From positions 15,442-79,441 of the forward strand of contig CAZJWR010000009.1 in assembly GCA_964549765.1 (NCBI GenBank): a stretch of DNA of 64,000 nucleotides, read 5' to 3'. A model generated the notes under the pieces. It was not told the origin of the DNA. It did no database searches and saw nothing but the letters and a program-made list of their open reading frames with translations. The position numbers were made by a program, and so were the translations under genes. The DNA is from an uncultured Ignavibacteriales bacterium (GTDB taxonomy: Bacteria; Zixibacteria; MSB-5A5; GN15; JAAZOE01). This document shows, in pieces, positions 38,101 through 54,164 of this stretch; the stretch's first letter is position 1, and each line of letters opens with the position of its first letter.

Positions 38101-40169
38101 TCAATAAACGTCTCGAAACCGGTATTCATGTAGGTATATCCGACTTCCTTATCCTCGGTGAAGGTGATGATATCGGGGAGGGCATCGGCATCGAGATCTC
38201 CGGCGAAGACGCCCAGGTTATGATAGCAATCACTGACGCTGGCGGCCTCGCCCACGTCGGTGAAGGACACACCGTCGGAGCGATAAAGACGATTTTGCCC
38301 GTTATTGTTGTTGAGATAGATGTCATCGAACCCGTCGAGGTTGTAATCGAAAAAAGCGGCGCCGTTGCTGAAATCAAAGTCGTTCAGACCGACCGAAGCC
38401 GATACGTTGTTGAGGAAATAGTCGGTAATCTGCACCGATACCACCAGCATTGTCGGGGAATTGATGGCGTCAGGTGTGGTTATCTGAACATGCCCGACAT
38501 ATTGTCCCAATCCGAGTCCGTCGGGATTAACGGTGATTGATAGTGAATCGGGAGTATTGCCGGAAGGCGTATTAACGGTAAGCCACGATGTCGTCGAAGC
38601 GGCGGTCCACGGGATGCTTTCGCCCTTGGCGTCGTAGACGAGCGTCCGCACCGTAACCGGTCCGTCCGAGATGTCTCTCATGAGCGAAATGCCGGAAGGC
38701 GCCAGCCGGATGTAGTTCGGCATTTCACCGGTCTCGAATATGATCAGACGAGAGCCTGCCGATACGCCGGCGGTGTCGACCACCGTGCCGGCGGGATAGA
38801 CGACCCGAACGTCGAACAACCCGGGGCCGCCCGTGCCCAAATGGATCCGCCCGTTGGTACCGGCGTTGAAACCGGATGTCGATGTGAGTTCATACATGGA
38901 CCGAAGGTGGTTTGCATTCCCGAGATACCCTCCGTCATATAGATAAACCTTGCTGCCGATACCGGCGAAGTTGGATACGGTCCCCCGGGGACTGACTTCG
39001 ACGGCGTAATTATTATTCAGATTATTGACGAAGCAGGGGTTCACCAGATAATCGGACTTGGCGATATAGAGATCGAGATCGCCGTCGCCGTCGAGATCAC
39101 CCACGGCGAGACCACCCGCCTTGTCCTGCTGGTTGTCCATGCCCACTTCCGCCGTGACGTCTTGAAAAACACCGCCGCCCAGATTTTCATGGAAGGTCGA
39201 CGATCCGTCCTCATTGGCCAGCACCAAATCGGGGTCGCCGTCATTATCAAAATCGGCAAATACGGCGCCACGGGTATAGCGGAGGGAGGTATTGGCATCG
39301 TCATCGATCGTGAAATGCCCGGAGCCGTCATTCAGATACAAGACATTGCTGTAGGCGAGAAACAGGTCAAGGTCGCCGTCGTTGTCGATATCGGCAAAAG
39401 AACCGCCCAGACCGTACGGCGTACCCTCGATATGAGAGGTGGCATCGCTGAAATGGCCATGGCCGTCGTTGAGATAAAGTGAAGCGCTGCCGCCATTCTG
39501 CCGCGAAATGAACAAATCGGGATCAAGATCATTATCGACATCGGCGAAGGCGGCATGGGCGACGAAACCGATCGAACCCAGCCCGGCCGCGTCATTGGAC
39601 TCTTCGAATTGCATATCGCCCAGATTCCGGAATAAGCGGCCGCCGTAGAAGACATCCAGCAGACCGTCCATATTATAATCGGCAAAAGCACAGGCGTATC
39701 CTTCATACCCATACATGGAGTAAAAGGAGTTGACGCCGGCATCGGAGAATGTCTGGTCGCCATTATTGAGATAGAGCATTCCGGGGCCGGTGCTGCCGCC
39801 GCCGTAGGAATTTTCCGTGAACACGAGATAATCCATCAGGCCGGTGCCGTCCAGATCAGCCGTGGCGATTCCCAGCGTCTTGACTTGGTTGTCGATTCCG
39901 GCGACGGCGCCCACTTCCGAGAAGGTGCCGTTCCCGTTGGACATGTATAGACGATCCGGGGCGCTGGAATAATTCGTCACGACGATATCGTCGAAACCGT
40001 CATTGTTAAAATCGAATATGGCCGTACCCATTGAAAAATCACTCAGGTGTAGACCCGATGCGGGGTCCTGGGCGATGTCGGTAAATGATGCGTTGGTACC
40101 CATCGCCAAGGCCGGGTACAGAGCGGCAAGAATGATAATCACCGCCAGTAAACTTCTCTTCCCTTTCAT
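35124..40169 (-). CDS. Giant secreted FG-GAP/VCBS (CRTAC1/ASPIC-UnbV-like) protein, duplicated module, with cohesin-like, dockerin and T9SS sorting domains
   Basis: Signal peptide [22 protein letters not shown] with GGGAGGA upstream of ATG 40169. Many FxDxDNDGDLD repeats. Two ~555-aa modules (38427-40091 and 36741-38426). The C-terminal modules are listed separately. Confidence 0.85.
   Translation of the reverse strand: [1681 protein letters not shown]
35127..35399 (-). other. T9SS/FlgD-Ig-like C-terminal sorting domain (copy 3)
   Basis: [38 protein letters not shown]...[22 protein letters not shown]. Confidence 0.8.
35811..35996 (-). other. Dockerin (two EF-hand-like repeats) inside the 35124-40169 protein
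   Basis: [25 protein letters not shown]...[26 protein letters not shown]. Confidence 0.7.
35997..36428 (-). other. Cohesin-like domain inside the 35124-40169 protein
   Basis: [49 protein letters not shown]... follows the cohesin pattern: a surface-exposed beta-sandwich with the 'vpV.l.nv..laafqf.l.YD...L' signature. Confidence 0.55.
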
Positions 40170-40568
40170 GATCCGTCCTCCCGGTATTTCGATCATTGAA
40201 ATTTTTTCCTGTCTTGTGCGATAACCCTGCTGTACGTTATTCTTGCGTCATCTACTTAGATGAGAGCCGCGTATGTAGAAAAATACACTATTTTGCCGCC
40301 GGTGCGGAGATTTTTTTAAACCCGCTTTTAAAAATTGGTTCCGGTTGCTATATTTTGGCATGGTGGGAATCCGTGAATTATCCCCAGCAACCGGGTGCGA
40401 TGTTCCCGGCGGCCGCGCAAGCGGATCCAGCCGGACGTTTTCCTGCCTCCAGGAGTCACACCATTTTTCCGCGAATCATGTATCAAAACGGCACAAACGC
40501 GCTCCTTAAATCGAAGGGCGTGGTGTGCCCGACGGACAAGTAGGGGCCGGGACGACAACCGGAAGAGC

Positions 40569-41724: not shown

Positions 41725-44489
41725 ATTTTAAGCAGTTATCAAAAATCGCCACGCCGAAGGCGCTACAGGCGTTTCTCGATCGTCACTATGACGGTGCGAT
41801 CGAGAAATTTTACTCAGCCCTGAACGCTGAATCCGATCGCCTTATTCGGACCGATCTCACGCAAGCCCTGCAACTGAATGAGTGGACAGCCGGGCTGGAA
41901 TCGCTCCTCCCGGATAAATACCGCGCTCAGCTCTATCGCATCTGGGGACGGCATGCTCATCTGTCGGGTGATTATCCCCTGGCATTGAAATTGTACAACC
42001 GAGCCATCGGTCTATTTGCCGCCGTCGGAGATCGCAACAGCCGAGCTCGTGTCCAGAAAGCGCTGCTGGACGTACTCGCGTATTTGGGAAAGTATGATCA
42101 GGCCATCGAGGTCGGGCGGCAATCGCTTCGCTTCTACGGACGTATCAAGGCGACGACCGATTATGCCCAGGTGCTGACCAACCTTGGAAATCTCTACCAT
42201 CGTCTCGACGAAAACAAGAAAGCCCTGCGGTACTACGACCGAGCCTATGAGATTTTCAAACATCTGGATAATACCTATGCCCTGGCTCTGGTGCAATTCA
42301 ATCGGGGTAATATCTATTCGAATCTGAACGAACTGGATAAATCGGAACGGCTTTACCGGCAGGCCGGGAAAATATATCGCTCGCTGTCGATGGAACTGGC
42401 CGCGACTCAGGCCGACTATTCCCTCGCGTATATCGCATTCCTTAAGGGGAATTACAGCGAATCACTCGACGCCTTCTCAAGAACGGGCGAGGAATTCCGA
42501 CGCCTCGGCGATAATCGCTGCCTGGCATTGACCGAGCTTGACCGGGCCGAGGTGTATCTGCATCTCAATCTGTACAGTCAGGCTATCGATGATGCGCTGG
42601 CGGTAGCAGACGAATTCGGGCGTTTGAAAATGTCGTACGAGCAGGGGAAATCGTACTATTTTGCTGCCGCCGGGTATTGCGCGTTCGGTGATTTCACGCT
42701 CGGGGGGAAACAGGCGCGCCGCGCCTTAAAGATTTTCGTACACGAGAAAAACCGAGTCTGGCAGGTATTATGTCGGTTCCTGCTCGCCAAGATAGATTTC
42801 CGGGATGGCCGGCTAAAGAGGGCTCTGAGCAATTTTCGAGACATCGCCGATTTTTATAAACGTCACGGCGATATCAGGCAGTATAACGACGTTCGGCTGA
42901 CCTGGCTGGAAGTGTTGATTGCCTCAAAACAATTCCGCGCCGCCGGACGGCTGTCTGTCGGTATCGGAAAAGTGCGGAGACAACTAACCGGCTATCAGCG
43001 CTTCCTCTACTATCTATTGGTCGGAGATCTCAATCGGGATCGCGGAGATACGGGGACGGCGGCCCGATTTTACCGGCGGGCGATCGGGGAAGCCGAGAAA
43101 CTTCAGGAAACGATTTTCCCCGATGAAATCAGACGCTTTTTCTGGATTGATAAGCTGGCCGCATACAATCGCCTGACGGCCGTTTATCTCGAGAAAGGCC
43201 GGACGCGCCAAGCATTCCGGATATTGGAGAAGGGTAAAGCCGCCCTTTTGATGACAGCCGATTTGCGTCTTCCGGCCGGCCGGCCGGTGCCGTTGTCACC
43301 GTCGCTGGAAGCCGAACGCTTGCGCTTGAAGGCGTTTCTCCGCAAGGCGATCATTCCCGCCGGTACGATGTCGCGCGGCGCCTCGGCTGCTCGCCGGGTG
43401 CAATCGGTTGAAAGACGGCTGTGGAAAATCTCGCGGGCTACCCGTGACAAGAGGCGTACATCCATCGGATCCGATCTTGGCGCCCTTCACGATATTGACG
43501 ATATCCAAAGTATCCTCGGCGACTCCGACGTTGTCGTCGAGTACCTGCTCCGAGAGGAGCTATGCGGTGCGTTTGTCATCGACGCCGATGATTTTGCCTT
43601 TCATGTCCTTGACATCGATGTGGAAGAACTCCGTGGCTTGCTGGCCAGATTCTACTTTCTGATCAACAGCGTTTCGACGTGCGACGACGATCGATTAGTC
43701 ATCAGTGACCTGCTAAGGCGGATTTCAGATAAAATCTGGAAGCCGCTGGAGACCGACTTCGATCACATCAAAAACGTCTATCTTGTTCCCGACGGCATCC
43801 TTGGCCGACTGCCGTTTTCCCTTGCCGAGAACACCGATGGTTCCGCCCTATTCGAACGGTATCATCCGTATATATGTTCTTCCTCTTCGACCCTGGCCGG
43901 GCGGCTGTCATCCAGGCAACCCGCGACTCCCTTCACGAGCGTATCCATTTTGACGGCGGCTTCCACCGATCTTCCCGGTGCATTGGCGGAGCGGGTGGCG
44001 GTATCCCGTCATTTTGCCGGGGCCGATATTCACGACGGGAAGGATGCCACCAGCAGCAACCTTTTCCGATCTTTGGAAAAGCGGGGAGGTTCGGTGCATC
44101 TTGCGGCGCACGCCTCGCAGTCGTACGAGAATCCTCTGTTTTCACAGATTCTGCTGGCTGACGGTCCCCTATATACATTTGACCTGTTCTCGCGCCCGGT
44201 TTCAGCCGAGCTGGTTGTTCTTTCCGGCTGTCAGACCGGTGATCCCGGCCTTCACGGCGCGGGGGAGAATTCTTCGCTGGCCGCGGCGTTCCTGGCGGCC
44301 GGGGCCGGAAACATTATAGCCAGTCATTGGCCGGTGGCCGATGAGATTACCGCAGTTTTTATGGATGCATTTTACGCCCACCTCGACCGCCGTAACTATG
44401 TCGCCGCGCTCCGCGCTGCGATGATCGAAACCCGAAACAAATCGGCCAATATCAAACATTGGGCCGCCTTTTATCTGGCGTGCCGTTGA
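41721..44489 (+). CDS. TPR-repeat / CHAT-domain (caspase-like) protease
   Basis: About 560 aa of TPR units (e.g. AQVLTNLGNLYHRLDENKKALRYYDRAYEIF). C-terminal CHAT domain with His context VHLAAHASQS and Cys context ELVVLSGCQTG. Confidence 0.85.
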   Translation: MNFKQLSKIATPKALQAFLDRHYDGAIEKFYSALNAESDRLIRTDLTQALQLNEWTAGLESLLPDKYRAQLYRIWGRHAHLSGDYPLALKLYNRAIGLFAAVGDRNSRARVQKALLDVLAYLGKYDQAIEVGRQSLRFYGRIKATTDYAQVLTNLGNLYHRLDENKKALRYYDRAYEIFKHLDNTYALALVQFNRGNIYSNLNELDKSERLYRQAGKIYRSLSMELAATQADYSLAYIAFLKGNYSESLDAFSRTGEEFRRLGDNRCLALTELDRAEVYLHLNLYSQAIDDALAVADEFGRLKMSYEQGKSYYFAAAGYCAFGDFTLGGKQARRALKIFVHEKNRVWQVLCRFLLAKIDFRDGRLKRALSNFRDIADFYKRHGDIRQYNDVRLTWLEVLIASKQFRAAGRLSVGIGKVRRQLTGYQRFLYYLLVGDLNRDRGDTGTAARFYRRAIGEAEKLQETIFPDEIRRFFWIDKLAAYNRLTAVYLEKGRTRQAFRILEKGKAALLMTADLRLPAGRPVPLSPSLEAERLRLKAFLRKAIIPAGTMSRGASAARRVQSVERRLWKISRATRDKRRTSIGSDLGALHDIDDIQSILGDSDVVVEYLLREELCGAFVIDADDFAFHVLDIDVEELRGLLARFYFLINSVSTCDDDRLVISDLLRRISDKIWKPLETDFDHIKNVYLVPDGILGRLPFSLAENTDGSALFERYHPYICSSSSTLAGRLSSRQPATPFTSVSILTAASTDLPGALAERVAVSRHFAGADIHDGKDATSSNLFRSLEKRGGSVHLAAHASQSYENPLFSQILLADGPLYTFDLFSRPVSAELVVLSGCQTGDPGLHGAGENSSLAAAFLAAGAGNIIASHWPVADEITAVFMDAFYAHLDRRNYVAALRAAMIETRNKSANIKHWAAFYLACR

Positions 44490-44506
44490 TCGGGAGGAAC
44501 TGCACG

Positions 44507-45895
44507 ATGCGACTGACTCGGATATTGCTTCTCATGCTCATCATTCTGCCGGTATATGTGCAGGCAACCGATATATATGTCGACTCCCAAGTGGTATGCC
44601 GGGTCCGGCCTGGAGCCGATCCTGACACCGTGGCAGCGACGGTAGAAGCACTGGTGACCAACGGCATCGAATCCGCCGAGACGTACCTGTTCCAGTATCG
44701 GGTGCCCGCGCCGGTTGACTCGGTGATTCATCTTCTGATCGACAATCCGGATGTTATCGAGGCACACCCCAATTTCATCATACACATTAACCTGGACCAG
44801 GTCAGTCAGCCATTCGTCGACGGCGATCAGACCAACCAGGCCTTCGTCGACGGCATTTCTCCGGCGCATTATTTTGAACAATACGCCGAGGGCAACCTGC
44901 TCATGGATTCGGCGCATCTTATCAACCGGGGAGAAGGCGCCGTGATCGCTATAATCGACGGCGGGTGCGACAACACCAACCCGGTGTTCCAAAACCGGAT
45001 CGACGATGGCAGTTTCGATTTCGTTGATATCGATTATGAACCATGGGTAAATTCCGGCACGACCGGCAACCACGGCACCTTCGTCGCGGGCATCGCGGCC
45101 CGATGCGCTCCCGATGCTTCTCTGATGATCGTGCGCTGCTTCAGCGCCTCCGGGAGCGGTACCAGTTTCGATATCGCCCACGGTATCTATTATGCGGCCG
45201 AGCACGGCGCCGACATCATCAATATGAGCTTCGGAATGGATCGGTATAACTCGACGATAGCCGAAGCCATCGAAGCGGCATATTACCAATACGGGGTGGT
45301 GTTGACAGCCGCGGCCGGAAATTCCGGATTGGAGTTCGATCGTTTCCCCGCTTCGCATCCCTGCGTACTCAATGTGGCCGCAGTGGATTCCGCCGATATC
45401 AAAACCGATTTTTCCAATTATGGGTTCAGTGTCGCCGTGACCGCCCCCGGGGAGAATATCTATAGTTCGCTGGCCGGCGGCAACGTCTGGGGCTGGTGGA
45501 GCGGGACATCGTTCTCCGCTCCGTTTGTGTCCGGTTTGGCGGCGCTATTGAAATCGATGCATCCGGGCGACCCTCCGTACTCCATAATGGAGACAATGGT
45601 ACGGGCATCCGACAATATTGACGAAATCAATCCCGGCTATACGCTGCTGCTCGGGAGCGGTCGGGTTGATTTCCTGAAGACGATTTATCTACCCGGCGAC
45701 GCCAACGGAAGCGGTGGGGTTAATCTGGGAGACGTTGTTTATCTGGTGAACTACATCTTTAAGAGCGGTCCCGAGGCGTTGCCCCCGGAAAGCGGCGACG
45801 CCAATTGCGATGAAACGGTCAATATCGGCGACGCCGTGTTCCTGATCGATTATATTTTCCGGAGCGGAACGGAGCCGGTTCGTTGTGATTGGTGA
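44507..45895 (+). CDS. Secreted subtilisin-family (S8) peptidase with C-terminal dockerin
   Basis: GGGAGGA SD before ATG 44507. Signal peptide [20 protein letters not shown]. Triad contexts AIIDGGCD (Asp), [11 protein letters not shown] (His) and [17 protein letters not shown] (Ser). Dockerin at 45692-45892: [22 protein letters not shown]...[23 protein letters not shown]. Confidence 0.85.
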   Translation: [462 protein letters not shown]

Positions 45896-46450: not shown

Positions 46451-46479
46451 TTGACATCCAGAGTCGCCATATGTATATA
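46451..46479 (+). promoter_or_regulatory. Sigma-70-type promoter of the ArsR-family gene
   Basis: TTGACA (46451-46456), a 17-nt spacer, then TATATA (46474-46479), about 30 nt upstream of ATG 46510. Confidence 0.6.
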
Positions 46480-46499
46480 TATGCGTAGTTTCGCATATA
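46478..46499 (+). promoter_or_regulatory. Perfect 8-6-8 inverted repeat TATATGCG-N6-CGCATATA (putative ArsR-family operator O1)
   Basis: Read directly from the sequence. It overlaps the -10 hexamer and the predicted start site of the regulator gene. Confidence 0.65.
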
Positions 46500-46509
46500 G
46501 GTACTAACG

Positions 46510-46845
46510 ATGATAGAAGATAGAGAACTATTCGATCTGCATGCCGAGTTCTGCAAGCTGATTGCCAGTCCCAGAAGGCTGATGATCATAGAACTCCTGG
46601 CCAGGAAGGAGCTGAGCGTTGGTGAGATTGCTCACGCTCTGGATGTGCCGCATAGCAATGTAAGCCAGCACCTCAGGGTCATGCGCTCGCGTCATATCGT
46701 TGAAGCACGCAGAGACGGGCAGACGGTATACTATAGATTGACCAATGTTCGGCTGCCCGCAGTCTGTGCTGAGATTCGGTCTATCTTGCTGGAAGGTATG
46801 GACATGCGAGGCAAGAAGGCTCGAGGAATGAACAAGAAAAGATGA
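46510..46845 (+). CDS. ArsR/SmtB-family winged-helix transcriptional repressor with two Cys (C15, C86)
   Basis: ASPRRLMIIELLARKELSVGEIAHALDVPHSNVSQHLRVMRSRHIVEARRDGQTVYYRL is the canonical ArsR HTH. The cysteines are at FCKLIASP (before alpha2) and at PAVCAEI (C-terminal helix). Confidence 0.85.
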   Translation: MIEDRELFDLHAEFCKLIASPRRLMIIELLARKELSVGEIAHALDVPHSNVSQHLRVMRSRHIVEARRDGQTVYYRLTNVRLPAVCAEIRSILLEGMDMRGKKARGMNKKR

Positions 46846-46865
46846 AGCATGTTTTTTTTGCGTCG

Positions 46866-46887
46866 TATGTGCAATAATGCGCATATA
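46866..46887 (+). promoter_or_regulatory. Second operator-like 8-6-8 dyad TATGTGCA-N6-CGCATATA (O2) upstream of tusA
   Basis: Same geometry and an identical right half-site to O1. The left half matches 6 of 8. It lies in the 87-nt arsR-tusA gap. Confidence 0.5.
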
Positions 46888-46932
46888 TGATGATCAGAAT
46901 ATATACAGACCTGTCTAGAGGAGAAAGAAGAA

Positions 46933-47187
46933 ATGACACTTGAAGAACTCTTAAACCTGAATGTCAGCAAGATCGTTGACGCTCGCGGCACCGCCTGCCC
47001 CGGTCCATTGCTCGAAGCCAAACGAGGTATGGCCGAAGTCCCCAAGAACGGAATCATGGAAGTGCTATCATCCGACGAAGGGACCAACGATGACATCCCG
47101 CTGTGGTGCAAGAAAGTCGGACATGAGTACCTTGGCAATATCGAGGAAGCGGGTTACTGGAGACTATTCGTTCGCAGGATGAAGTAA
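46933..47187 (+). CDS. tusA: TusA/SirA-family sulfur carrier protein
   Basis: 84 aa with the DARGTACPGPLLEAKRGM motif (conserved Cys-Pro-x-Pro). GGAGAAAGAAG SD. Confidence 0.85.
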   Translation: MTLEELLNLNVSKIVDARGTACPGPLLEAKRGMAEVPKNGIMEVLSSDEGTNDDIPLWCKKVGHEYLGNIEEAGYWRLFVRRMK

Positions 47188-47621
47188 TGGTGTCAACTAC
47201 TACTGACACCGGTTGGGAACCCAGGATACTTGTATTCTCAACCAATAATATCTCGGACCCCGGGATTGATCTGGCTGGCAGTTCACACATGCCTTACTCC
47301 CCCTCGGTGCTGGTGATAGCCGTGCCGTGCTCGAGCGGCATCAAGTCCTCGTGGGTGCTTCACGCGCTTAATGCCGGATTTGATGGCGTATTCATAGCCG
47401 CCGATGGGTCTGACTGTGCTTACCTGCCGGACTGCACGAAACGAACCGGTGAGGTTGTTCAAAGGACGCAGGCGCTTTTGGAGAAAAACAACCTTGATCC
47501 AAGGCGGCTGAAAATGGCGGCAATCTGCTCAGTCTGTGCTGAGTCTTTCCAGTCGCACATGGAGAAATTCAGATCAGCTCTGGTGAAGCTCAGCGCGCCG
47601 CAAGGAAAGGTGGCCCAATGA
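47187..47621 (+). CDS. MvhD/FlpD-like iron-sulfur protein (methyl-viologen-reducing hydrogenase delta-subunit family)
   Basis: ILVFSTNNISDPGIDLAG...VLVIAVPCSSGIKSSWVLHALNAGFDGVFIAADGSDCAYLPDC is the FlpD-domain pattern. The start overlaps the tusA stop (TAATG). Confidence 0.75.
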   Translation: MVSTTTDTGWEPRILVFSTNNISDPGIDLAGSSHMPYSPSVLVIAVPCSSGIKSSWVLHALNAGFDGVFIAADGSDCAYLPDCTKRTGEVVQRTQALLEKNNLDPRRLKMAAICSVCAESFQSHMEKFRSALVKLSAPQGKVAQ

Positions 47622-47641
47622 GGTATTTTATTGTCAGCCAA

Positions 47642-47657
47642 TGTGAATTAATTCACA
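47642..47657. promoter_or_regulatory. Perfect CRP/FNR-family-type palindrome TGTGA-N6-TCACA (TGTGAATTAATTCACA)
   Basis: A 16-bp perfect palindrome in the only sizeable (79-nt) intergenic gap of the operon. Its centre is 51 nt upstream of the hdrL-like ATG. Confidence 0.6.
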
Positions 47658-47700
47658 ATATACAGCCTGCTTCTGATTCTTCCGCGAGAGGCCTAAATAT

Positions 47701-50478
47701 ATGAAATATGACGTATTGGTTGTCGGCGGCGGGATCGCCGGTATGGAATCGTCATTGACCCTGGGAGACATGGGCTACAATGTGCTCCTGGTGGAAAAGG
47801 AGGCCAGCATTGGCGGAAAGATGGTATTGCTCAGCAAGGTATTCCCGACCCTCGATTGTGCAAGTTGCATCTCCACCCCAAAGATGGCGTCTACCGCTCA
47901 CCACCCCAATGTCACCATATCTACATCCACTCAAATCGATGAAATCACCAGGAACAATGGGGGCAACTTCCAGATTAAGCTCCACAAGAAATCCACCTAC
48001 GTCAACTCGGCGGCATGTACGGGGTGTGGTGAGTGTGAGCAGGCCTGCACAGTGGCACGGCCGGATCCGTTCAATTTCGATTTAGTTGCCCACCGGGCAA
48101 TCCATATCCCTTTCCCTCAGGCCGTGCCCAAGAAAGCAGTTATGGTACGGGAAGGAACGTCCCCCTGTTCATTCGCCTGCCCGGCGGGAGTAAAAGCCCA
48201 CGGTTATGTATCCCTGGTGCGCAGCGGCAAATATGACGAGGCGTTTCATCTCCACATGGAAGATGCCCCCCTTCCAGGCAGCCTCAGCCGGGCCTGTTAT
48301 GCTCCATGCGAAGGCGAGTGTACCCGCGGCAAACTGGAAGGTGCCGTTCCCATTCGGGCAATCAAACGCTTCATGGTCGATCGTTACTACGAGAAATACC
48401 CTGAACCGGAATATGGCCCGCCGGAGTTGATCCCCGGGAAAAAAGTTGCCGTCGTAGGTTCCGGTCCGGCAGGACTGTCGGCAGCTTATCATCTGGCTCG
48501 CCGTGGCTACAGCGTCACCGTATTCGAGTCGGCACCTGAACCCGGAGGCATGCTGCGGTACGGCATTCCCGCCTACCGACTGCCGAAAGAGGTGGTAGAT
48601 CGAGATATCAAAAATATCACGGCTCTCGGTGTTCGTATCGTTACCGCGTTGCCGGTTGCGTCCCTGGGTTCGCTGAAAGCGCAGGGGTATGACGCGGTCT
48701 TTCTCGCCGTAGGTACAATAGAAGGAATGAAGATAGCGGTTGAGGGTGAAGAGCTCAACGGTGTCACCGACTGCATGACCTTCTTGAAGCAGGCGAACTC
48801 GGCCGAGGAAATGGATCTGAGCGGGAAAACAGTCATGGTGATAGGTGGCGGAAACGCAGCCATCGATCCCGCCAGGATGGCAATTCGGCTGGGTGCCCAG
48901 AAGGTCATCATACAATATCGGAGAAGTCGAGCCGAAATGCCCGCACACGATTGGGAAGTAGCAGCCGCCCTAGAAGAAGGCGTTACCCTCCAAATTCTGC
49001 GCAATCCGGTGCGTTTCGTCGGGAATAACGGTCGTCTGGAAGCCGTCGAGAGCATAACGATGGAGCTTGGTGAACCAGACGACAGCGGCCGGCGGCGTCC
49101 TATACCGGTAGCAGGTTCAGAGCAGCAGATTCCGGTCGACATGGTGATCCTTGCAATCGGCCTCAAACCAAGTACTTCACCCTTCGCCACCGAGCTTGAT
49201 CTCAATCGAAACGGGACAATCAAGACGAATGAAGAAACGCTCCAGACTTCGATGCCACCCGTCTTCGCCGGAGGCGACGCGGTCACCGGGCCATCCATGA
49301 TTGTCAGTGCGATAGGCCATGGGAAACGCGCGGCCTTCTACATCGACCGATTCCTCAAGGCCGAATCGCTGGAAGGCATCGCGTTCGACAACAAACTCCC
49401 GGTGGTTGACGTAGTTTCGGTTCTGGCGCGGACACACACGAACGGCAACGGCTCCGATCACCGACAATTGCTACCGGTCGTAGGTTTGGAGATACCTCGC
49501 GCACGGATATCCGAGCGTATCGCCACAGAAAAGAAAAAGATTCCCGTATCGCAGCGGATTGGGAGTCTGGCCGAGGTCGAGCTTCCCTTTACTGAGGAAG
49601 AGGCCCGCTACGGTGCGAGCCGGTGCCTGGATTGCGGCGTCTGCTCTGAATGCCATGAATGCGTGAAGGTCTGTCCGGCTCACGCAATTGATTTCAGCCT
49701 GCGGGATGAAACGCTGACGGTCGAAGCAACATCCGTAATCGTGTCAACCGGCTTCAATCTCTTTGATGCCCATCGCAAGCCGACCTATGGCTATGGCAAG
49801 ATCCCCAATGTCATCACGGCGATGCAAATGGACCGCATATTGGCCCCTACCCGTCCCTTCAATGGCGTCATCAGACCGTCCGACGGCAAGGCCCCCGACA
49901 ACATAGCTTATGTCTTGTGTGCCGGCTCCCGAGATCAAAGCGTCGATAATGCGCTGTGTTCCCGAGTCTGCTGTATGTATTCCCTCAAGCAGGCTCAATT
50001 GGTGATGGGATCTCTGCCGCTGGCGGATATTACCATTTACTACATTGATATTCGGGCCTTTGGTAAGGGCTACGAGGAGTTCTACCAGCAGGCCAGGGGA
50101 ATGGGAATTTACTTTGTCAAGGGCAGGGTGGCTCAGATTGACCAATTGGATAACGGTAATCTGGATGTGCAATACGAGGCGATAGACGCCGACGGCGGAC
50201 TCAGGCACATGGAACACGATCTGGTTGTGCTTTCTACCGGCTTTGCGCCGAATCTTGACGCGTTCCGGATGTTCAAAGACGGCAATCTGGACGCAGACGC
50301 TCATGCGTATGTGCGGGAGATCGACGAAGATATCAACCCGGGACGAACAAGTATAAACGGAGTGTTTGTCGCCGGTGCCGCCTCTACTCCCAGAGATATC
50401 CCTGACAGCATACTTCACGCGGGCGCGGCCGTTGCTCAGGCGGCCGCGTACTTACAGAGAATGAGGATTAGCCGATGA
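47701..50478 (+). CDS. HdrA-like flavoprotein with an inserted GltD/NfnB-like NAD(P)H:FAD oxidoreductase module (HdrL-type)
   Basis: HdrA N-terminus YDVLVVGGGIAGMESSLTLGDMGYNVLLVEKEASIGGKM, CTGCGECEQAC, AIHIPFPQAVP. Insert of about aa 150-555 with KKVAVVGSGPAGLSAAYHLARRGYSVTVFESAPEPGGMLRYGIPAYRLPKEV, VMVIGGGNAAID, VFAGGDAVTGPSMIVSAIGHGKRAA. HdrA C-terminus CLDCGVCSECHECVKVCP, VIVSTGF...YGYGKIPNVIT, VFVAGAASTPRDIPDSI. Confidence 0.85.
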   Translation: MKYDVLVVGGGIAGMESSLTLGDMGYNVLLVEKEASIGGKMVLLSKVFPTLDCASCISTPKMASTAHHPNVTISTSTQIDEITRNNGGNFQIKLHKKSTYVNSAACTGCGECEQACTVARPDPFNFDLVAHRAIHIPFPQAVPKKAVMVREGTSPCSFACPAGVKAHGYVSLVRSGKYDEAFHLHMEDAPLPGSLSRACYAPCEGECTRGKLEGAVPIRAIKRFMVDRYYEKYPEPEYGPPELIPGKKVAVVGSGPAGLSAAYHLARRGYSVTVFESAPEPGGMLRYGIPAYRLPKEVVDRDIKNITALGVRIVTALPVASLGSLKAQGYDAVFLAVGTIEGMKIAVEGEELNGVTDCMTFLKQANSAEEMDLSGKTVMVIGGGNAAIDPARMAIRLGAQKVIIQYRRSRAEMPAHDWEVAAALEEGVTLQILRNPVRFVGNNGRLEAVESITMELGEPDDSGRRRPIPVAGSEQQIPVDMVILAIGLKPSTSPFATELDLNRNGTIKTNEETLQTSMPPVFAGGDAVTGPSMIVSAIGHGKRAAFYIDRFLKAESLEGIAFDNKLPVVDVVSVLARTHTNGNGSDHRQLLPVVGLEIPRARISERIATEKKKIPVSQRIGSLAEVELPFTEEEARYGASRCLDCGVCSECHECVKVCPAHAIDFSLRDETLTVEATSVIVSTGFNLFDAHRKPTYGYGKIPNVITAMQMDRILAPTRPFNGVIRPSDGKAPDNIAYVLCAGSRDQSVDNALCSRVCCMYSLKQAQLVMGSLPLADITIYYIDIRAFGKGYEEFYQQARGMGIYFVKGRVAQIDQLDNGNLDVQYEAIDADGGLRHMEHDLVVLSTGFAPNLDAFRMFKDGNLDADAHAYVREIDEDINPGRTSINGVFVAGAASTPRDIPDSILHAGAAVAQAAAYLQRMRISR

Positions 50479-52199
50479 CGGAACGAAGGATTGGCGTCTA
50501 CATTTGCCATTGCGGCGGCAACATCTCAGACTATGTTGACGTAGACAGAGTCCGGGAAGGAGTAGCACATGACGAAGGCGTGGTTGTGGCCAAGACGACC
50601 ATGTTTGCGTGTTCTGATGCCGCTCAGGAGGAGATGATCGAGGATATCAGGACCAATAATCTAGACGGCATCGTCATCGCCTCATGTTCTCCGAAGCTTC
50701 ACCTCTTTACGTTCCGTGCGATGGCGGAGCGGGCGGGATTGAATCCATATCAGTACGTGCAGGTTAACCTCAGGGAGCAGGATTCCTGGGCTCATCAACA
50801 TGATTTGGACAGAGCCACCGAGAAAGGGATCAGGCTGGTGAAAGCCGGAATCGCCCGTTGCGCCCTGACCGCTCCTCTCACCACTATGAGAATCGAAACA
50901 ACTCCGAAAGTTCTTGTTATCGGCGCGGGGGTTGCTGGACTGCGAGCGGCGCTCTCGCTTTCCGATATGGGCTTTACCGTTTTCGTTATTGAGAGAGAAG
51001 CTGCCGTCGGGGGGTGGACGGGTCAGTTCGGGGGTATGTTTCCGAACGATCGCATCGGGTCTGATCTTGTGAGCAGTCTATATGCAGATGCCAAGAAGTG
51101 GGACAATATCACAATCTTCACCAGGGCCGAGCTGATTGCGAAAAGCGGCAACGTTGGGGCCTTTGAAGTAGTCATTAATATCAACAAGCGAGAGACTATT
51201 AAGCTCGACGTTGGCACGATCGTTGTGGCGACAGGTTTTGATGTTTACCGGCCGGCAGCCGGTGAATTCGGTTATGGGCAGCCGGGCGTTATCACGCTTC
51301 CGGACTTCAAACAGCTCGTGGACCGTTCGACCGGGCCGCTCACCTACCAGGGCCGCGCAGTAGAAGACATTGCCTACATCTACTGTGTCGGCAGTCGGCA
51401 GTCGGCAGACGGCGACAATGCGAATCGTTACTGTTCACGATACTGCTGTACCGCGGCCGTTCACACCTCTTTGACTATGCACAAGAGAGATGAGACTACG
51501 CACCACTTTCATCTTTATCGCGACATGCGGACATACGGCAAGTATGAGCTGCTGTATCTGGATTCGCTCAACAACGGCTCCGCATTTCTGAAATATGCCG
51601 ACGATGACCCTCCTGCGGTGACTCTCGCGGGAAACAGACTGCGCGTCACGGTGCGCGATCAACTAACTCAGGGAGAGGAATTCGACATCGATGTCGACCT
51701 GGTCGTGCTGGTAACGGGGATGGTGCCGCGAGAAAACAAGAATCTTGTCGACGTCCTCAAACTTCCCATCGCTATGGATGGCTTCTTCAATGAGATCCAT
51801 CCCAAGCTCAGACCGGTTGAGACGGTCATTGATGGGGTCTTCATTGCCGGTGCATCTCAAGGTCCCAAGACACTGGCTGAAAGTGTGGCTTCATCCATGG
51901 CGGCCGTATCAAAGAGCGCCGCACTGCTGATGAAGGGATATGTTGATCTCGAGCCTCTGATCGCTACCATCGACAGCGACAAATGTTCCTGGTGCGATGA
52001 ATGCACAAAGGCGTGCCCATATGATGCCATTGAAAATGTATCCGTGGACGGCGAAGAGGTTGCACGGATCATCCCCGCTCTGTGCAAAGGAGGCGGGGCA
52101 TGTGTTCCCGTGTGTCCGCGCGACGCGATCGAAGTGAAGGGGTACACGGATGCCCAGATAATTGCAACGATTGATTCTCTGATCAAAGAGGTTGGCTGA
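50475..52199 (+). CDS. hdrA: HdrA/QmoB-like FAD and Fe-S flavoprotein with C-terminal 2x[4Fe-4S] ferredoxin domain
   Basis: IGVYICHCGGNISDYVDVD, VLVIGAGVAGLRAALSLSDMGFTVFVIEREAAVGG, IVVATGFDVY, VFIAGASQGPKTLAESV, CSWCDECTKACP, CKGGGACVPVCP. ATGA overlap with the previous gene. Confidence 0.85.
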   Translation: MTERRIGVYICHCGGNISDYVDVDRVREGVAHDEGVVVAKTTMFACSDAAQEEMIEDIRTNNLDGIVIASCSPKLHLFTFRAMAERAGLNPYQYVQVNLREQDSWAHQHDLDRATEKGIRLVKAGIARCALTAPLTTMRIETTPKVLVIGAGVAGLRAALSLSDMGFTVFVIEREAAVGGWTGQFGGMFPNDRIGSDLVSSLYADAKKWDNITIFTRAELIAKSGNVGAFEVVININKRETIKLDVGTIVVATGFDVYRPAAGEFGYGQPGVITLPDFKQLVDRSTGPLTYQGRAVEDIAYIYCVGSRQSADGDNANRYCSRYCCTAAVHTSLTMHKRDETTHHFHLYRDMRTYGKYELLYLDSLNNGSAFLKYADDDPPAVTLAGNRLRVTVRDQLTQGEEFDIDVDLVVLVTGMVPRENKNLVDVLKLPIAMDGFFNEIHPKLRPVETVIDGVFIAGASQGPKTLAESVASSMAAVSKSAALLMKGYVDLEPLIATIDSDKCSWCDECTKACPYDAIENVSVDGEEVARIIPALCKGGGACVPVCPRDAIEVKGYTDAQIIATIDSLIKEVG

Positions 52200-52438
52200 T
52201 GAATAATAGAATTGAGCGCGATACGGCAGAGGCGATGAGGGATGAAATGATGATGAAAGACAAGATTCTCGCTCTCCTGAAAGACGACCCCGGAACGATA
52301 CCTGAGATCGCCCAGGCGCTTGAGTGTTCGACCAGTTCTGTCGTGTACTGGATAATGGCGATGTGGAGATATGGTTCCGTGGAAGCCGTCGGCAAACCGG
52401 ATGACAAAGGATATTACAGGTACCGCCCCGTTTCGTAA
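52199..52438 (+). CDS. Small winged-helix-like protein, unknown role
   Basis: 79 aa. KILALLKDDPGTIPEIAQALECSTSSVVYWIMAMWRYGSVEAVG looks like a wHTH. The start overlaps the hdrA stop (TGATG). Confidence 0.45.
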   Translation: MNNRIERDTAEAMRDEMMMKDKILALLKDDPGTIPEIAQALECSTSSVVYWIMAMWRYGSVEAVGKPDDKGYYRYRPVS

Positions 52439-52447
52439 GGAGAAGTC

Positions 52448-52759
52448 ATGGCTGCCGTAGATACAAAGTTTGTAGATGAAGTCAACTCTTCAAAATCGTT
52501 CAATGCCGCTGCCTGCATGAATTGCGGCGTCTGTACCGCCGTTTGCCCGATGGAGCTGGACCTGCTGCCGCGACGGCTTTTTCGTTATGCGGTCATTGGC
52601 GTTGAGGAGAAAATTCTGGAACATCGGGAAACGATATTTTCCTGCCTAATGTGCCGGATGTGCGAGCAAAACTGCCCCGCCGGGGTCAGGATCAGCGAAA
52701 ACGTGCGTATCCTGCGCGGCTACATCAACCGAACCGTCTTTGGGTTATCGAGGAAATAG
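52448..52759 (+). CDS. hdrC: HdrC-like 2x[4Fe-4S] ferredoxin subunit
   Basis: 103 aa with CMNCGVCTAVCP and CLMCRMCEQNCP. Confidence 0.8.
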   Translation: MAAVDTKFVDEVNSSKSFNAAACMNCGVCTAVCPMELDLLPRRLFRYAVIGVEEKILEHRETIFSCLMCRMCEQNCPAGVRISENVRILRGYINRTVFGLSRK

Positions 52760-52762
52760 ATC

Positions 52763-53797
52763 ATGGCGTTACCTACCGAACACGTTCTGGGGATACTGGT
52801 GGATAATCTTTTGAGGCGCGGAAGTGTCCTCCGGCTGTCGCCCCGCACCGCCGTCAGGTGGTCACAGGGATTGAACATACCCAAGGGCGGGAAGACCGTC
52901 ATATATACCGGTCATATGTATCAGTTGATTCCAGCCATCTCCGCTCTGGCGACAAAAATGGCCTATTTTGAGAACTCCTGGATGACAAGATTCTTCGGTC
53001 TGGGACGCATTGCCAATAGATTTATCAACCTGGCGTGGTTTCTGGCGCGAACTGATTCCCCGGAGACCGAGCATTATAACAACATCCTGCGAAACATCGC
53101 ACGGCTATTACAGGCGGCAGGAATCGAATTTGGATATCTCTACGAAGAAGAGATGTATTCGGGAGCCCTTGTGCACGACGAGGGTGTTGACGACGCTTTC
53201 GTAACACATGCCGAAAGGGTTGTTAAAGTCTTCAGACGTAACGGAGTGAAATCTGTTATCACCGTGGATCCTCATACCACGAATATGCTTCGAAGCGTCT
53301 ATCCGGTGTACTGCAAGGACTATGACCTGGAAGTGAAAAGCTACCTTGAGGTATTGGCTGAAAGCGATATCGAGCCGGCGCGGCTACTAAACCTCGATGT
53401 GACGATTCACGACTCCTGCGTGTACGCTCGCTATGAGAACATTGTCATGGAACCTCGACAATTGCTTACGAAGGCCGGCGCGACGCTCCGCGAACCTGAA
53501 AACGCGGGGAAGCTCACACACTGCTGCGGCGGACCGATAGAATCGTTTTTCCCTGACAAGGCGAAAGCCATTGCAGCCAAGAGGGTGAAACAGCTCGCTG
53601 CCACAGGAGGCAATGTAATTGCAATGTGCCCGATCTGTCTGGTGAATCTCAAACATGCGGCACAGGATATCGATGCGGACGTGGCTGACATCTCAGAATT
53701 GCTGGTAGAAGCTTATGGTGACTTCGGATCAGCACGGTCGACGCGTCCGGTACGCAAATCAAATCAAAAAGAAGGCGAGGTTCTTACCTATGGATGA
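52763..53797 (+). CDS. hdrB: HdrB/HdrD-like CCG-domain (noncubane Fe-S) subunit
   Basis: Two Cys-rich CCG-type motifs (TIHDSCVYARY and LTHCCGGPIESF; MCPICLVNL). The gene lies 3 nt after hdrC. Confidence 0.8.
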   Translation: MALPTEHVLGILVDNLLRRGSVLRLSPRTAVRWSQGLNIPKGGKTVIYTGHMYQLIPAISALATKMAYFENSWMTRFFGLGRIANRFINLAWFLARTDSPETEHYNNILRNIARLLQAAGIEFGYLYEEEMYSGALVHDEGVDDAFVTHAERVVKVFRRNGVKSVITVDPHTTNMLRSVYPVYCKDYDLEVKSYLEVLAESDIEPARLLNLDVTIHDSCVYARYENIVMEPRQLLTKAGATLREPENAGKLTHCCGGPIESFFPDKAKAIAAKRVKQLAATGGNVIAMCPICLVNLKHAAQDIDADVADISELLVEAYGDFGSARSTRPVRKSNQKEGEVLTYG

Positions 53798-54164
53798 GGC
53801 AAACGTTGAAAAGATGGTCATCGTGGCAACGCACGGATGTGAGGACCCGGAGAGGGCGTGTCTGCCATTCGTGCTGGCGAACGCTGCGCTGGCCATGGAC
53901 ACTCATGCAGTGGTTATTCTTCAGGGGACTGCGGTTACCTTGGCGAAGAAGGGCTGCTATGAGCATGTATTTGCGGCCGGTCTGCCAGCCCTTAAGGAGT
54001 TGGTTGATTCCTTCTTGGAACTCGGAGGCAGCCTCCTGGTCTGCAGCCCCTGCATTCAGGAACGACACATCACATCTGATATGTTGGTTAAGAACGCACA
54101 GCCAATAAAAGCGGCCAGGGTCGTAATGGAGCTGCTCGAGGCAAAAGCTACCTTGAGTTATTAA
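53790..54164 (+). CDS. dsrE: DsrE/DsrF-family sulfur-transfer protein
   Basis: KMVIVATHGCEDPERACLPFVLANAALAMDTHAVVILQGTAV...LLVCSPC. 8-nt overlap with the hdrB-like gene. Confidence 0.75.
   Translation: MDEANVEKMVIVATHGCEDPERACLPFVLANAALAMDTHAVVILQGTAVTLAKKGCYEHVFAAGLPALKELVDSFLELGGSLLVCSPCIQERHITSDMLVKNAQPIKAARVVMELLEAKATLSY

Follow-up and report, generated by a model that had tools for sequence, protein, structure and literature searches.

The arsR gene analysed here, and the operon that follows it, lie in a stretch of 64,000 nucleotides (the window). In the reading that we favour, with somewhat better than even confidence, arsR encodes an autoregulated repressor that acts through two operators, O1 and O2, controls the downstream tusA-hdr genes and is released from DNA through a site formed by its two cysteines, C15 and C86. 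The features of the regulatory part are the following.

46451 to 46456, + strand: -35 hexamer TTGACA of the arsR promoter, read directly and invariant in 7/7 aligned orthologous upstream regions
46474 to 46479, + strand: -10-like hexamer TATATA, 17 nt past the -35, within a TATATATAT tract
46478 to 46499, no strand: predicted operator O1, TATATGCG-TAGTTT-CGCATATA, identified by palindrome, PWM and conservation
46510 to 46845, + strand: arsR, predicted ArsR/SmtB winged-helix repressor of 111 aa (Pfam, NCBIfam, AF2, Foldseek)
46852 to 46859, + strand: run of 8 T just past the arsR stop codon
46866 to 46887, no strand: predicted operator O2, TATGTGCA-ATAATG-CGCATATA, in the arsR-tusA spacer, identified by PWM and conservation
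46886 to 46891, + strand: TATGAT, a candidate -10 for an internal promoter that tusA may have, sharing bases with O2 at its right end

The arsR product matches Pfam HTH_5 (PF01022; 1.4e-12, 47.7 bits for a cutoff of 22) and the NCBIfam ArsR/SmtB model NF033788 (85.4 bits, cutoff 55). Its AF2 model (pLDDT 95) displays the order alpha1-alpha2-alpha3-alpha4-beta1-beta2-alpha5, with helices at residues 5-18, 21-30, 37-44, 48-60 and 82-110 and strands at 64-69 and 72-77; the top Foldseek matches of this model are M. smegmatis SmtB, Rv0081, SmtB, NolR and CzrA (TM 0.7-0.8). The best PDB sequence matches are SmtB (1.7e-14), NolR (8e-14) and Rv0081 (9e-14), which are nearer to the locus ArsR, in sequence and fold alike, than the detectable homologs BigR (8.5e-10) and SqrR (2e-8). 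Its two near-invariant cysteines stand elsewhere than those of the known persulfide sensors, which places the protein in a branch of the ArsR family that is so far uncharacterised. We found no published description of this regulator, nor of a cysteine site joining alpha1 and alpha5, in searches of the literature on ArsR proteins, Hdr/TusA, the Desulfovibrionales ArsR regulon and Dissulfuribacter.

The arsR ATG is at 46510, its stop codon at 46843-46845, and a conserved AGG about 8 nt upstream of the ATG is the likely Shine-Dalgarno sequence in the ortholog alignment. The -10-like TATATA agrees with TATAAT at 4/6 positions, and an AT-rich tract is kept at this place in the aligned upstream regions of orthologs. 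The consensus scanner did not call the arsR promoter because the last base of the hexamer is A instead of the canonical T. O1 is a perfect 8-6-8 inverted repeat with the core ATGC-N8-GCAT; it shares two bases with the 3' end of the -10-like hexamer and also covers the expected transcription start. Its homologous position is kept in the loci L001, L016, L017, L019 and L023. Such a conserved palindrome over a gene's own -10 is, at the sequence level, what ArsR autoregulation predicts, and since O1 covers the -10 and start region we propose that ArsR represses itself.

O2 stands within the 87 nt that separate arsR from tusA, 46 nt upstream of the tusA ATG (46933). Its right half-site is identical to that of O1 and its left half differs by 2 mismatches; taken in a 7-8-7 register (TATATGC-N8-GCATATA), O2 departs from symmetry by 1 mismatch only. 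Equivalent sites occupy the same spacer in L016, L017, L019, L023 and L024, and the L016 spacer palindrome has perfect 13-nt arms. In the more distant relatives examined the spacer measures only 3-57 nt and O2 is absent from it; O2 is therefore a lineage-specific addition. The sequence-only reading of this DNA had announced an ArsR-family regulator, a TTGACA-17-TATATA promoter, a perfect palindrome over its own -10 and start, and a second operator of the same geometry and right half-site before tusA. All four stand: the profile matches bear out the family, direct reading the promoter coordinates as well as the position and symmetry of O1, and the orthologous loci the conserved position of O2.

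Several other elements of the spacer and its surroundings were considered. The run of T is kept in 6/6 aligned arsR-downstream spacers. An intrinsic terminator after arsR was rejected: the terminator scan found none, no hairpin lies 5' of the run, and the 3' end of arsR together with the run folds like its shuffles (z-score 0.14). The run is thus probably not a terminator; it may act like an UP element. Hexamers of the type TAYGAT occur at the same aligned place as TATGAT in the spacers of orthologs; near TATGAT itself there is no convincing -35 and the consensus scanner calls no separate tusA promoter. Palindromes just 3' of O2 are different in each locus and unconserved, and were dropped. 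Around arsR and tusA the + strand shows no sigma54 promoter, and a minus-strand sigma54 match with 1 mismatch within arsR (46567-46552) is attributed to chance, being unconserved in orthologs and encoding the CKLIA motif. Further upstream, a GGTTCGATTCC-like string near 46250 was considered as a tRNA and rejected.

O1 and O2 are real sites, far past chance. The operator pattern, allowing at most 3 mismatches, has 3 matches in the 64 kb for 0.29 expected, a number reached in 0/100 shuffles; the short core ATGCG-N6-CGCAT alone shows no enrichment in the window. With a PWM built only from sites of the orthologous loci, the window's own O1 and O2 being left out, O1 ranks first (31.4 bits) and O2 second (20.9 bits) in the window, both above the maxima of all 100 shuffles (mean 11.1, highest 18.1). 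The third-best match (25824-25845, 12.5 bits) falls within this shuffle noise and was rejected as a further operator. Both operator positions are kept in 5-6 orthologous Zixibacteria loci, in two of which the half-sites have changed symmetrically (TATACG..CGTATA in L017, ATTCG..CGAAT in L024), the pattern expected for dimer binding.

Binding of the locus ArsR to these sites is predicted from sequence, and the outer parts of the palindromes (TATATA) overlap promoter-like sequence, so that O1 and O2 could instead be bound by another protein or be plain AT-rich promoter elements. We judge this very improbable. What is conserved is the GC-containing core ATGCG..CGCAT and not the AT-rich flanks, and the size, symmetry and position of the sites agree with those of ArsR-family operators. 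Moreover, in L001 and L017 the sites accompany an arsR gene followed by a CoA-disulfide-reductase-like gene, with no hdr operon, 79-aa winged-helix gene or sigma54 activator nearby; this co-occurrence points to ArsR as the binder.

Downstream of O2, the presumed target operon comprises the following genes.

46933 to 47187, + strand: tusA, 84 aa, with a CPGP active-site motif (Pfam TusA 1.6e-20)
47187 to 47621, + strand: mvhD/flpD-like iron-sulfur subunit (Pfam FlpD 1.8e-27)
47701 to 50478, + strand: HdrL-like fusion of 925 aa, an HdrA interrupted by an NAD(P)H domain of GltD/NfnB type (Pfam Pyr_redox_2, Fer4_20; NCBIfam HdrA2 3.8e-142, PRK12771 1.8e-151)
50475 to 52199, + strand: HdrA-like flavoprotein, 574 aa (NCBIfam HdrA2 3.4e-142)
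52199 to 52438, + strand: 79-aa winged-helix protein within the operon (Pfam HTH_27 1.5e-6)
52448 to 52759, + strand: HdrC-like 2x[4Fe-4S] protein (Pfam Fer4_17, Fer4_8)
52763 to 53797, + strand: HdrB-like CCG-domain protein (Pfam CCG 9.6e-14)
53790 to 54164, + strand: dsrE-like sulfur carrier (Pfam DsrE 6.3e-13)

The dsrE start is likely the ATG at 53790 or 53814; the mechanically defined ORF of 149 aa begins at 53715, and its DsrE match starts at residue 33. These Pfam assignments agree with the earlier proposal of tusA, hdr-like and dsrE genes downstream of arsR. The sHdr cluster is the sulfur-oxidising heterodisulfide-reductase-like cluster. It has the composition sHdrC1B1AHC2B2, with duplicated HdrB and HdrC, and is associated with lipoate-binding protein genes (PMC12423496). 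The present operon encodes a single HdrC and a single HdrB, a pair of HdrA-type proteins that includes the NfnB/GltD fusion, and an MvhD/FlpD subunit, and no lipoate-binding protein gene occurs among the genes scanned at 46933-55003. A target operon of sHdr type was thus rejected for want of duplicated HdrB/HdrC and of a lipoate-binding protein; by its predicted gene content the operon is of HdrL/MvhD type. No published function for the tusA-mvhD-hdrL-hdrA-hdrCB(-dsrE) module was found in the literature searched.

The order arsR-tusA-mvhD/flpD-hdrL-hdrA recurs in relatives at 47-75% identity. In 9 distinct loci, the least similar at 47% identity, an arsR gene stands directly 5' of tusA-flpD-hdrL-hdrA; among them are contigs labelled Deltaproteobacteria and a cluster containing Dissulfuribacter thermophilus (HFC46801.1), where an 82-aa gene is found at the position of the 79-aa winged-helix gene. 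On a Verrucomicrobia contig, a 49%-identical homolog is found near the module and a paralog directly 5' of dsrE-tusA-flpD-hdrL. Other clade members precede a CoA-disulfide-reductase-like gene, or Fer4_11/NrfD/multihaem-cytochrome genes. The clade is present in Zixibacteria, Desulfobacterota, Myxococcota and Verrucomicrobia, and loci of Zixibacteria and Myxococcota have a PAS-sigma54 activator in synteny with arsR. The contig search with the single ArsR protein retrieved mostly distant Micromonospora ArsR paralogs, its useful results being the Myxococcota loci and L001. With sulfur and disulfide genes as neighbours, the regulator plausibly answers to a redox or sulfane-sulfur signal.

The locus ArsR has exactly two cysteines, C15 in alpha1 and C86 in the first turns of alpha5 in the AF2 model. 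In an alignment of 121 sequences, the query and 120 homologs of at least 48% identity, C15 is present in 120/121, C86 in 119/121 and H11 in 119/121, and 112/121 have exactly two cysteines; H11 and C15 in alpha1, C86 and R90 in alpha5 are near-invariant in the family. Further out, the 150 nearest clusters at 50% identity include 81 in which both cysteines are retained, 123 with C15 and 101 with C86. Where relatives have replaced them, position 86 carries Y, F, I or V and position 15 L or I, and in the SmtB alignment C86 corresponds to Y111 and C15 to F40. Residues H/Q11 and R90 are co-conserved with the pair, which we regard as a candidate alpha1/alpha5 thiol site. The sequence-only reading was right about the two cysteines and about the placing of C86 in the C-terminal helix, and a lack of conservation in orthologs, which it named as a refutation, is contradicted by their near-invariance; it also likened their layout to that of BigR, SqrR, SoxR and sHdrR, and here the comparison fails, as C15 and C86 align to non-sensing positions of the known RSS sensors.

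This last point bears on whether the locus ArsR is a true member of the BigR/SqrR/SoxR/sHdrR group (ArsR SSN cluster 4), a group in which a polysulfide bridge, di- to tetrasulfide, joins the alpha2 and alpha5 cysteines of one protomer and persulfide or polysulfide treatment releases the DNA; the locus protein would then do so through equivalent cysteines. Sulfur-carrier genes 3' of arsR, a 4-8-4 operator like the sqr box, the detectable homology to BigR and SqrR and a similar cysteine spacing (71 versus 66 residues) speak for it. Yet in an alignment with the true PDB sequences the alpha2 cysteine of BigR, SqrR and HlyU falls on E28 and their C-terminal alpha5 cysteine on L94, positions occupied by Cys in at most 2/150 of the nearest cluster representatives each. 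C15 sits in alpha1, not alpha2, 13 residues N-terminal of the known position, and C86, at the start of alpha5, 8 residues N-terminal of its counterpart; both being shifted, the resemblance in spacing is a coincidence and not a near-match. The NCBIfam BigR equivalog NF040642 gives 63.1 bits, well below its cutoff of 155, and SmtB, NolR and Rv0081 are the closer relatives. Membership in this group is hardly credible.

A metal or Fe-S sensor, in which H11/C15 and C86 of both subunits ligate a metal or a bridging cluster whose occupancy controls DNA binding, appears quite unlikely. Invariant His and Cys residues spaced by one helical turn, with a second Cys, make a typical set of ligands, the proteins of the presumed target operon contain many Fe-S clusters, and ArsR metal sites have arisen at many places of the alpha1/alpha5 interface (PMC8960804, PMC10054925). 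But many members with both cysteines have Q in place of H11, including the paralog directly 5' of dsrE-tusA (L027), the conserved partner of C86 is an Arg, no metal ligand, and none of about 14 sampled loci has a metal efflux or sequestration gene as adjacent target. The canonical sites are also absent: the alpha5 ligands of the SmtB/CzrA/NmtR type (DxHx10HxxE; D104, H106, H117 and E120 in SmtB) correspond to N79, R81, I92 and E95, the SmtB alpha3N ligands are missing, and the alpha3 CxC of ArsR/CadC (ELCVCDL) is replaced by ELSVGEI at residues 34-40. C15 and C86 could also be structural residues of a plain autoregulated repressor released by a ligand, a protein partner or a competing regulator such as the PAS-sigma54 activator, syntenic with arsR in two phyla, or the 79-aa winged-helix protein. 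Indeed both look like buried core positions, hydrophobic in relatives and in SmtB, which makes a structural role conceivable and the access of a bulky persulfide questionable, and NolR, Rv0081 and PagR have no known inducer site (PMC10054925). Against this, near-invariance as Cys across 120 homologs is unexpected for packing, given that Y, F, I or V are tolerated elsewhere, the flanking H/Q11 and R90 are conserved along with the pair, and no sigma54 promoter turned up near either arsR or tusA. We consider this explanation unlikely.

According to the favoured model of a thiol-controlled repressor, an ArsR homodimer would bind the 22-bp two-fold symmetric operators with core ATGC-N8-GCAT. At O1, which covers the -10 and start region of the sigma70-type arsR promoter, it would shut off its own gene; at O2 it would block a weak internal promoter or act as a roadblock to read-through, and either way occupancy would keep tusA-mvhD-hdrL-hdrA-(wHTH)-hdrC-hdrB-dsrE off. 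We propose that the repressor lets go of DNA when a clade-specific site is chemically modified; this site would combine C15, preceded by H11 at a distance of one turn in alpha1, with C86, followed by R90 at the same distance in alpha5. Both cysteines lie on the hydrophobic stripes of the two dimer-core helices, and their proximity is argued from helix-face periodicity and the SmtB alignment. Because of the genes encoded beside clade members, the signal would most likely be a species that oxidises thiols or contains sulfane sulfur, or else TusA or a similar carrier loaded with sulfur. A wider statement is possible but rather doubtful: that a large ArsR clade uses a new alpha1/alpha5 dimer-core site (C15 with H/Q11, C86 with R90) for sulfane-sulfur or thiol-redox sensing, possibly with direct sulfur transfer from TusA, and switches on the TusA-MvhD-HdrL-HdrABC-DsrE module, which is widely conserved and just as uncharacterised and would probably be a reductase, electron-bifurcating and NAD(P)H-linked, with a protein-bound persulfide or disulfide as substrate.

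To our knowledge, the characterised sulfur-sensing ArsR proteins all use one Cys pair, in alpha2 and at the end of alpha5. C15 and C86 lie off every characterised ArsR sensory site, and sensing through them has therefore no precedent. With SqrR, BigR, HlyU, YgaV, SoxR and sHdrR, the locus ArsR shares the fold, the predicted logic of a homodimeric repressor, two conserved cysteines per protomer and sulfur-metabolism gene targets, and the sHdrR and SoxR genes likewise adjoin hdr-like or sulfur-carrier genes (PMC12423496). It differs by having E28 and L94 where SqrR has C41/C107, BigR C42/C108 and sHdrR C50/C116, and by a target operon of HdrL/MvhD type in place of sHdr/Sox. The SqrR sqr box, ATTC-N8-GAAT, is a 22-bp minimal operator bound 1:1 by the homodimer (bioRxiv 10.64898/2026.05.15.721447); O1 has the same 4-8-4 geometry with different half-sites (ATGC-N8-GCAT), and the upstream site of L024 reads ATTCG-N6-CGAAT. 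Rv0081 of M. tuberculosis shares the N-terminal L-x-x-L-x-A-E-F-x-K motif but displays K and F where the locus clade has H11 and C15, and NolR lacks cysteine. RexT of Nostoc is a non-metal, Cys-based H2O2-sensing ArsR protein outside cluster 4 (PMC8960804), with vicinal Cys40/Cys41 in alpha3, whereas alpha3 of the locus ArsR (37-44) has no Cys. The wider retention of C15, with C86 in part of the wider clade, resembles the 1-Cys/2-Cys types of OhrR (MarR), and the presence of a CoA-disulfide-reductase-like gene next to clade members has a parallel in CstR (CsoR family) regulons; the folds of OhrR and CstR are unrelated to that of the locus ArsR and the analogy is one of logic only.

The ArsR family serves as a model of the evolution of many different sensory sites on a single small fold. 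The locus described here provides a concrete and conserved example, with a defined predicted operator, an alternative Cys pair and a target operon. As the same arrangement exists in a cluster with the cultured sulfur disproportionator D. thermophilus, the question is experimentally approachable. The analysis also flags tusA-mvhD-hdrL-hdrA-hdrCB(-dsrE) as a predicted regulated unit common to several anaerobic phyla.

The arsR product belongs to the ArsR/SmtB family (Pfam HTH_5, 1.4e-12; NCBIfam ArsR/SmtB model, 85 bits with the cutoff at 55). Its AF2 model, based on a 56-sequence alignment (pLDDT 95), displays alpha1 at residues 5-18, alpha2 at 21-30, alpha3 at 37-44, alpha4 at 48-60, beta strands at 64-69 and 72-77, and alpha5 at 82-110. 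Foldseek places M. smegmatis SmtB, Rv0081, SmtB, NolR and CzrA on top with BigR and SqrR lower, and sequence comparison ranks them the same way (SmtB 1.7e-14, NolR, Rv0081, then BigR 8.5e-10 and SqrR 2e-8). The SmtB alpha5 metal ligands D104, H106, H117 and E120 are absent, being N79, R81, I92 and E95 here, and so is the alpha3 metal site (ELSVGEI instead of ELCVCDL).

Features of the arsR region and the downstream hdr operon
46451-46456 (+): -35 hexamer TTGACA, read from the sequence
46474-46479 (+): -10-like hexamer TATATA, 17-nt spacer after TTGACA
46478-46499: candidate operator O1, TATATGCG-TAGTTT-CGCATATA, perfect 8-6-8 inverted repeat
46510-46845 (+): arsR, 111 aa, exactly two Cys (C15, C86)
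46852-46859 (+): run of eight T, 3' of the arsR stop codon
46866-46887: candidate operator O2, TATGTGCA-ATAATG-CGCATATA, 46 nt 5' of the tusA ATG (46933)
46886-46891: candidate -10 TATGAT of a putative internal tusA promoter, TAYGAT-like in orthologs
46933-47187 (+): tusA, CPGP motif
47187-47621 (+): mvhD/flpD
47701-50478 (+): HdrL-like, a GltD/NfnB-like NAD(P)H module inserted in HdrA
50475-52199 (+): second HdrA
52199-52438 (+): 79-aa winged-helix (wHTH) protein, Pfam HTH_27, between hdrA and hdrC
52448-52759 (+): hdrC
52763-53797 (+): hdrB, CCG domain
53790 or 53814 to 54164 (+): dsrE

ArsR-family sensors of persulfide or sulfane sulfur form a cluster marked out by a cysteine in alpha2 and another in alpha5 (PMC10054925); sHdrR (Cys50/Cys116) and SoxR carry this SqrR-type pair (PMC12423496). 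The sequence-only reading had seen a similar layout here, but when BigR, SqrR and HlyU, as deposited in the PDB, are aligned with the window protein and five other members of the family, C15 and C86 come out at non-equivalent positions. The alpha2 cysteine of these sensors (LMLVC, LMIMC, LQILC) aligns to E28 and the C-terminal alpha5 cysteine (TIFC, EQFC, RLYC) to L94, whereas C15 lies in alpha1, 13 residues upstream of the former, and C86 at the start of alpha5, about one turn into the helix and 8 residues upstream of the latter. The likeness in spacing, 71 versus 66 residues, is thus fortuitous, both positions being shifted. Since the two cysteines are off the sensor positions and the NCBIfam BigR equivalog model gives 63 bits, below its cutoff of 155, the protein, judged by alignment and model score, is not a member of this cluster. 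No description of an ArsR sensory site combining alpha1 and the start of alpha5 was found in reviews and SSN papers.

The pair itself, as far as sequences can tell, is not incidental. The query aligned with 120 homologs (48-100% identity) shows C15 in 120/121, C86 in 119/121, H11 in 119/121 and R90 in 120/121, and exactly two cysteines in 112 of these 121 proteins, so lack of conservation in orthologs is not seen. Searched exhaustively with HMMER, 1.84 billion cluster representatives gave 496 clusters at E<=1e-10; both cysteines are kept in 81 of the 150 nearest (35-68% identity), C15 in 123 and C86 in 101, with at most 2 carrying a cysteine at each SqrR position. This higher conservation of C15 in the wider clade resembles, by analogy, the 1-Cys versus 2-Cys logic of OhrR. 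Replacements among relatives are Y/F/I/V at position 86 and L/I at position 15, the SmtB equivalents are Y111 and F40 respectively, and hydrophobic residues follow a heptad-like spacing (I7, H11, F14/C15, I18; L82, V85/C86, I89, I92/L93); C15 and C86 would therefore lie on the alpha1 and alpha5 faces that build the dimer core. Because C86 falls halfway between the two parts of the alpha5 metal site of SmtB in the alignment, it is probably near the dimer dyad.

Direct reading of the sequence confirmed the proposed promoter and operator coordinates as exact, as well as an O2 with the geometry and right half-site of O1 in front of tusA. O1 begins within the -10-like hexamer, and 10 nt separate its end from the arsR ATG (46510); in the register TATATGC-N8-GCATATA, O1 has no mismatch and O2 one. 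The arsR promoter escaped a consensus scanner, its TATATA being without the final T; TTGACA is invariant in 7/7 aligned orthologous upstream regions, with an AT-rich tract at the same distance downstream. The 16 specified operator bases occur three times in 64 kb with up to 3 mismatches, against 0.29 expected, and 0/100 shuffles gave that many. With a weight matrix trained exclusively on the corresponding sites at orthologous loci, so that neither site of the window contributed, O1 (31.4 bits) and O2 (20.9 bits) take the top two ranks across the window, the maxima of shuffles averaging 11.1 and reaching at most 18.1. The third-best match, TTTATTCCGGTTTTCGCATATA at 25824-25845 (+), has 3 mismatches and 12.5 bits, within shuffle noise, and is probably no site.

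Both operator positions are conserved among orthologous loci; homologs of the protein bear names such as candidate division Zixibacteria.

Operator half-sites in the window and in sampled loci of other contigs (L numbers)
Window: O1-type TATATGCG-N6-CGCATATA; O2-type TATGTGCA-N6-CGCATATA
L001: O1-type (upstream) TATATGCG-N6-CGTATAAA; O2-type (spacer) none found
L016: O1-type TTTATGCG-N6-CGTACAAA; O2-type TATATGCA-N6-CGCATATA, perfect arms of 13 nt
L017: O1-type TATATACG-N6-CGTATAAA; O2-type CATATGCA-N6-CGTATATA
L019: O1-type TTTATGCG-N6-CGCATATA; O2-type TATATGCG-N6-CGCATATG
L023: O1-type TATATACG-N6-CGCATAAA; O2-type TATATGCA-N6-CGCAGATA
L024: O1-type ATTCG-N6-CGAAT; O2-type TATATGCG-N6-CGCATATA, perfect

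Matrix ranks and positional conservation thus bear out the predicted autoregulated architecture with two operators, which is ordinary for the ArsR family. Identical base changes in both half-sites (L017, L024) are what one would expect if a symmetric dimer recognises the site. The geometry, though not the half-site (ATGC-N8-GCAT here), equals that of the SqrR sqr box, ATTC-N8-GAAT, bound by one dimer per site with a minimal duplex of 22 bp (bioRxiv 10.64898/2026.05.15.721447). The T-run is kept as 5-8 T directly 3' of the arsR stop in 6/6 aligned spacers (window, L016, L017, L019, L023, L024); no hairpin precedes it, no terminator was found between arsR and tusA, and it may be an UP-like element for a tusA promoter. 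In distant loci O2 is absent, the arsR-tusA spacer is just 3-57 nt and arsR simply heads the operon; O2 and the conserved T-run are a trait of the Zixibacteria lineage.

The tusA, hdr-type and dsrE genes announced downstream are all present (46933-54164). Gene content rejects a sulfur-oxidising sHdr cluster and identifies, by annotation, a methanogen/sulfate-reducer-type Hdr with sulfur-carrier proteins. The embedded winged-helix protein, 79-82 aa, also lies between hdrA and hdrC in L030 (10952-11200) and might act as a further regulator or as an accessory subunit of Hdr. An arsR directly 5' of tusA-flpD/mvhD-hdrL(700-930 aa)-hdrA(about 575 aa) is found in the window, L016, L019/20, L023, L024/25, L026 (a contig labelled Deltaproteobacteria), L028, L029 and L030/31 (in the cluster with Dissulfuribacter thermophilus protein HFC46801.1), with ArsR identity to the window protein as low as 47%. 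The Verrucomicrobia contig L027 has two paralogs of the clade, at 2804-3160 (-) and 5001-5390 (+), separated by rhodanese and VKOR-thioredoxin genes. One, a 49%-identical homolog, is divergent from a neighbouring gene block; the other, inside that block, has both cysteines and Q at position 11 and stands directly 5' of dsrE-tusA-flpD-hdrL.

In L001 and L017/L018 the downstream gene encodes a CoA-disulfide-reductase-like flavoprotein (TIGR03385 1.5e-71, below its cutoff), a putative second regulon type of the same clade; it replaces tusA-hdr (L001 6546-7934, L017 5563-6951) after ArsR orthologs of 72-73% identity. Other members stand 5' of Fer4_11/NrfD/multihaem-cytochrome genes (L021/22, L002). 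These genes (L021 5375-8674, L002 6315-10521; ArsR 45-61% identity, both cysteines kept) encode a quinone-interacting membrane redox complex, with NrfD and cytochrome parts fused in one 1072-aa protein in L002. No metal-efflux genes adjoin clade members in the sampled loci.

Downstream of dsrE come a cytidylate-kinase-like gene, a PAS-sigma54 activator (55084-56472) and a DUF2173-like gene; the activator-DUF2173 pair is syntenic with arsR elsewhere. The full set (55084-59471: activator, DUF2173, small ORF, OsmC, radical-SAM, cupin) recurs in L019, L023, L024 and L025. It is divergent from arsR in other Zixibacteria loci but downstream on the same strand in the window, which suggests a rearrangement. 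A sigma54-type promoter match, TGGCACATCTTATGCA at 56649-56664 (+), with 1 mismatch, directly follows the activator gene, about 40 nt 5' of ATG 56705, where the DUF2173-like gene probably starts; in Myxococcota loci L002 and L006, TGGCAT-N5-TTGCT lies just 3' of the homologous activator gene. Another match inside arsR, TGGCAATCAGCTTGCA at 46567-46552 (-), coincides with CKLIA codons, is unconserved in orthologs and is probably due to chance. Unrelated to arsR, and known from translation only, are a 1690-aa FG-GAP/VCBS-repeat protein with dockerin-like repeats and a T9SS-type C-terminal sorting domain (35124-40196, -) and a subtilase-like protease with similar C-terminal repeats (44459-45895, +).

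We propose that an ArsR dimer on O1, across -10/+1, would repress its own promoter, and that a dimer on O2 would keep tusA and the downstream genes unexpressed, by blocking either the weak internal promoter (candidate: T-run and TATGAT) or read-through from the arsR promoter; derepression would follow modification of the C15/C86 site. This whole chain is the most likely reading and somewhat probable overall, its first half being rated higher. That O1 and O2 serve another protein is most improbable: the sites stay with arsR in L001 and L017/L018, where hdr operon, sigma54 activator and small wHTH gene are all missing from the surroundings, and this argues for binding by ArsR itself. True SqrR-type membership, with the sensor cysteines falling on E28 and L94, is equally hard to credit.

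As for the signal, the proximity of TusA, DsrE, Hdr, the CoA-disulfide-reductase-like enzyme and quinone-linked redox complexes points to a thiol-oxidising or sulfane-sulfur cue more than to a metal. A metal or Fe-S site at C15/C86 is unlikely. A purely structural cysteine pair, with release by another mechanism, is doubtful too, if less so. The novelty lies in three features occurring together: a near-invariant cysteine pair at positions that no characterised ArsR sensor uses, a clade that is sizeable and uncharacterised, and a linkage, tight and extending across phyla, to a tusA-mvhD-hdrL-hdrABC(-dsrE) module that is itself undescribed. The window ArsR agrees with a remark in PMC12423496 that the canonical cysteines are missing from many ArsR regulators associated with hdr genes, whose mode of action may differ.
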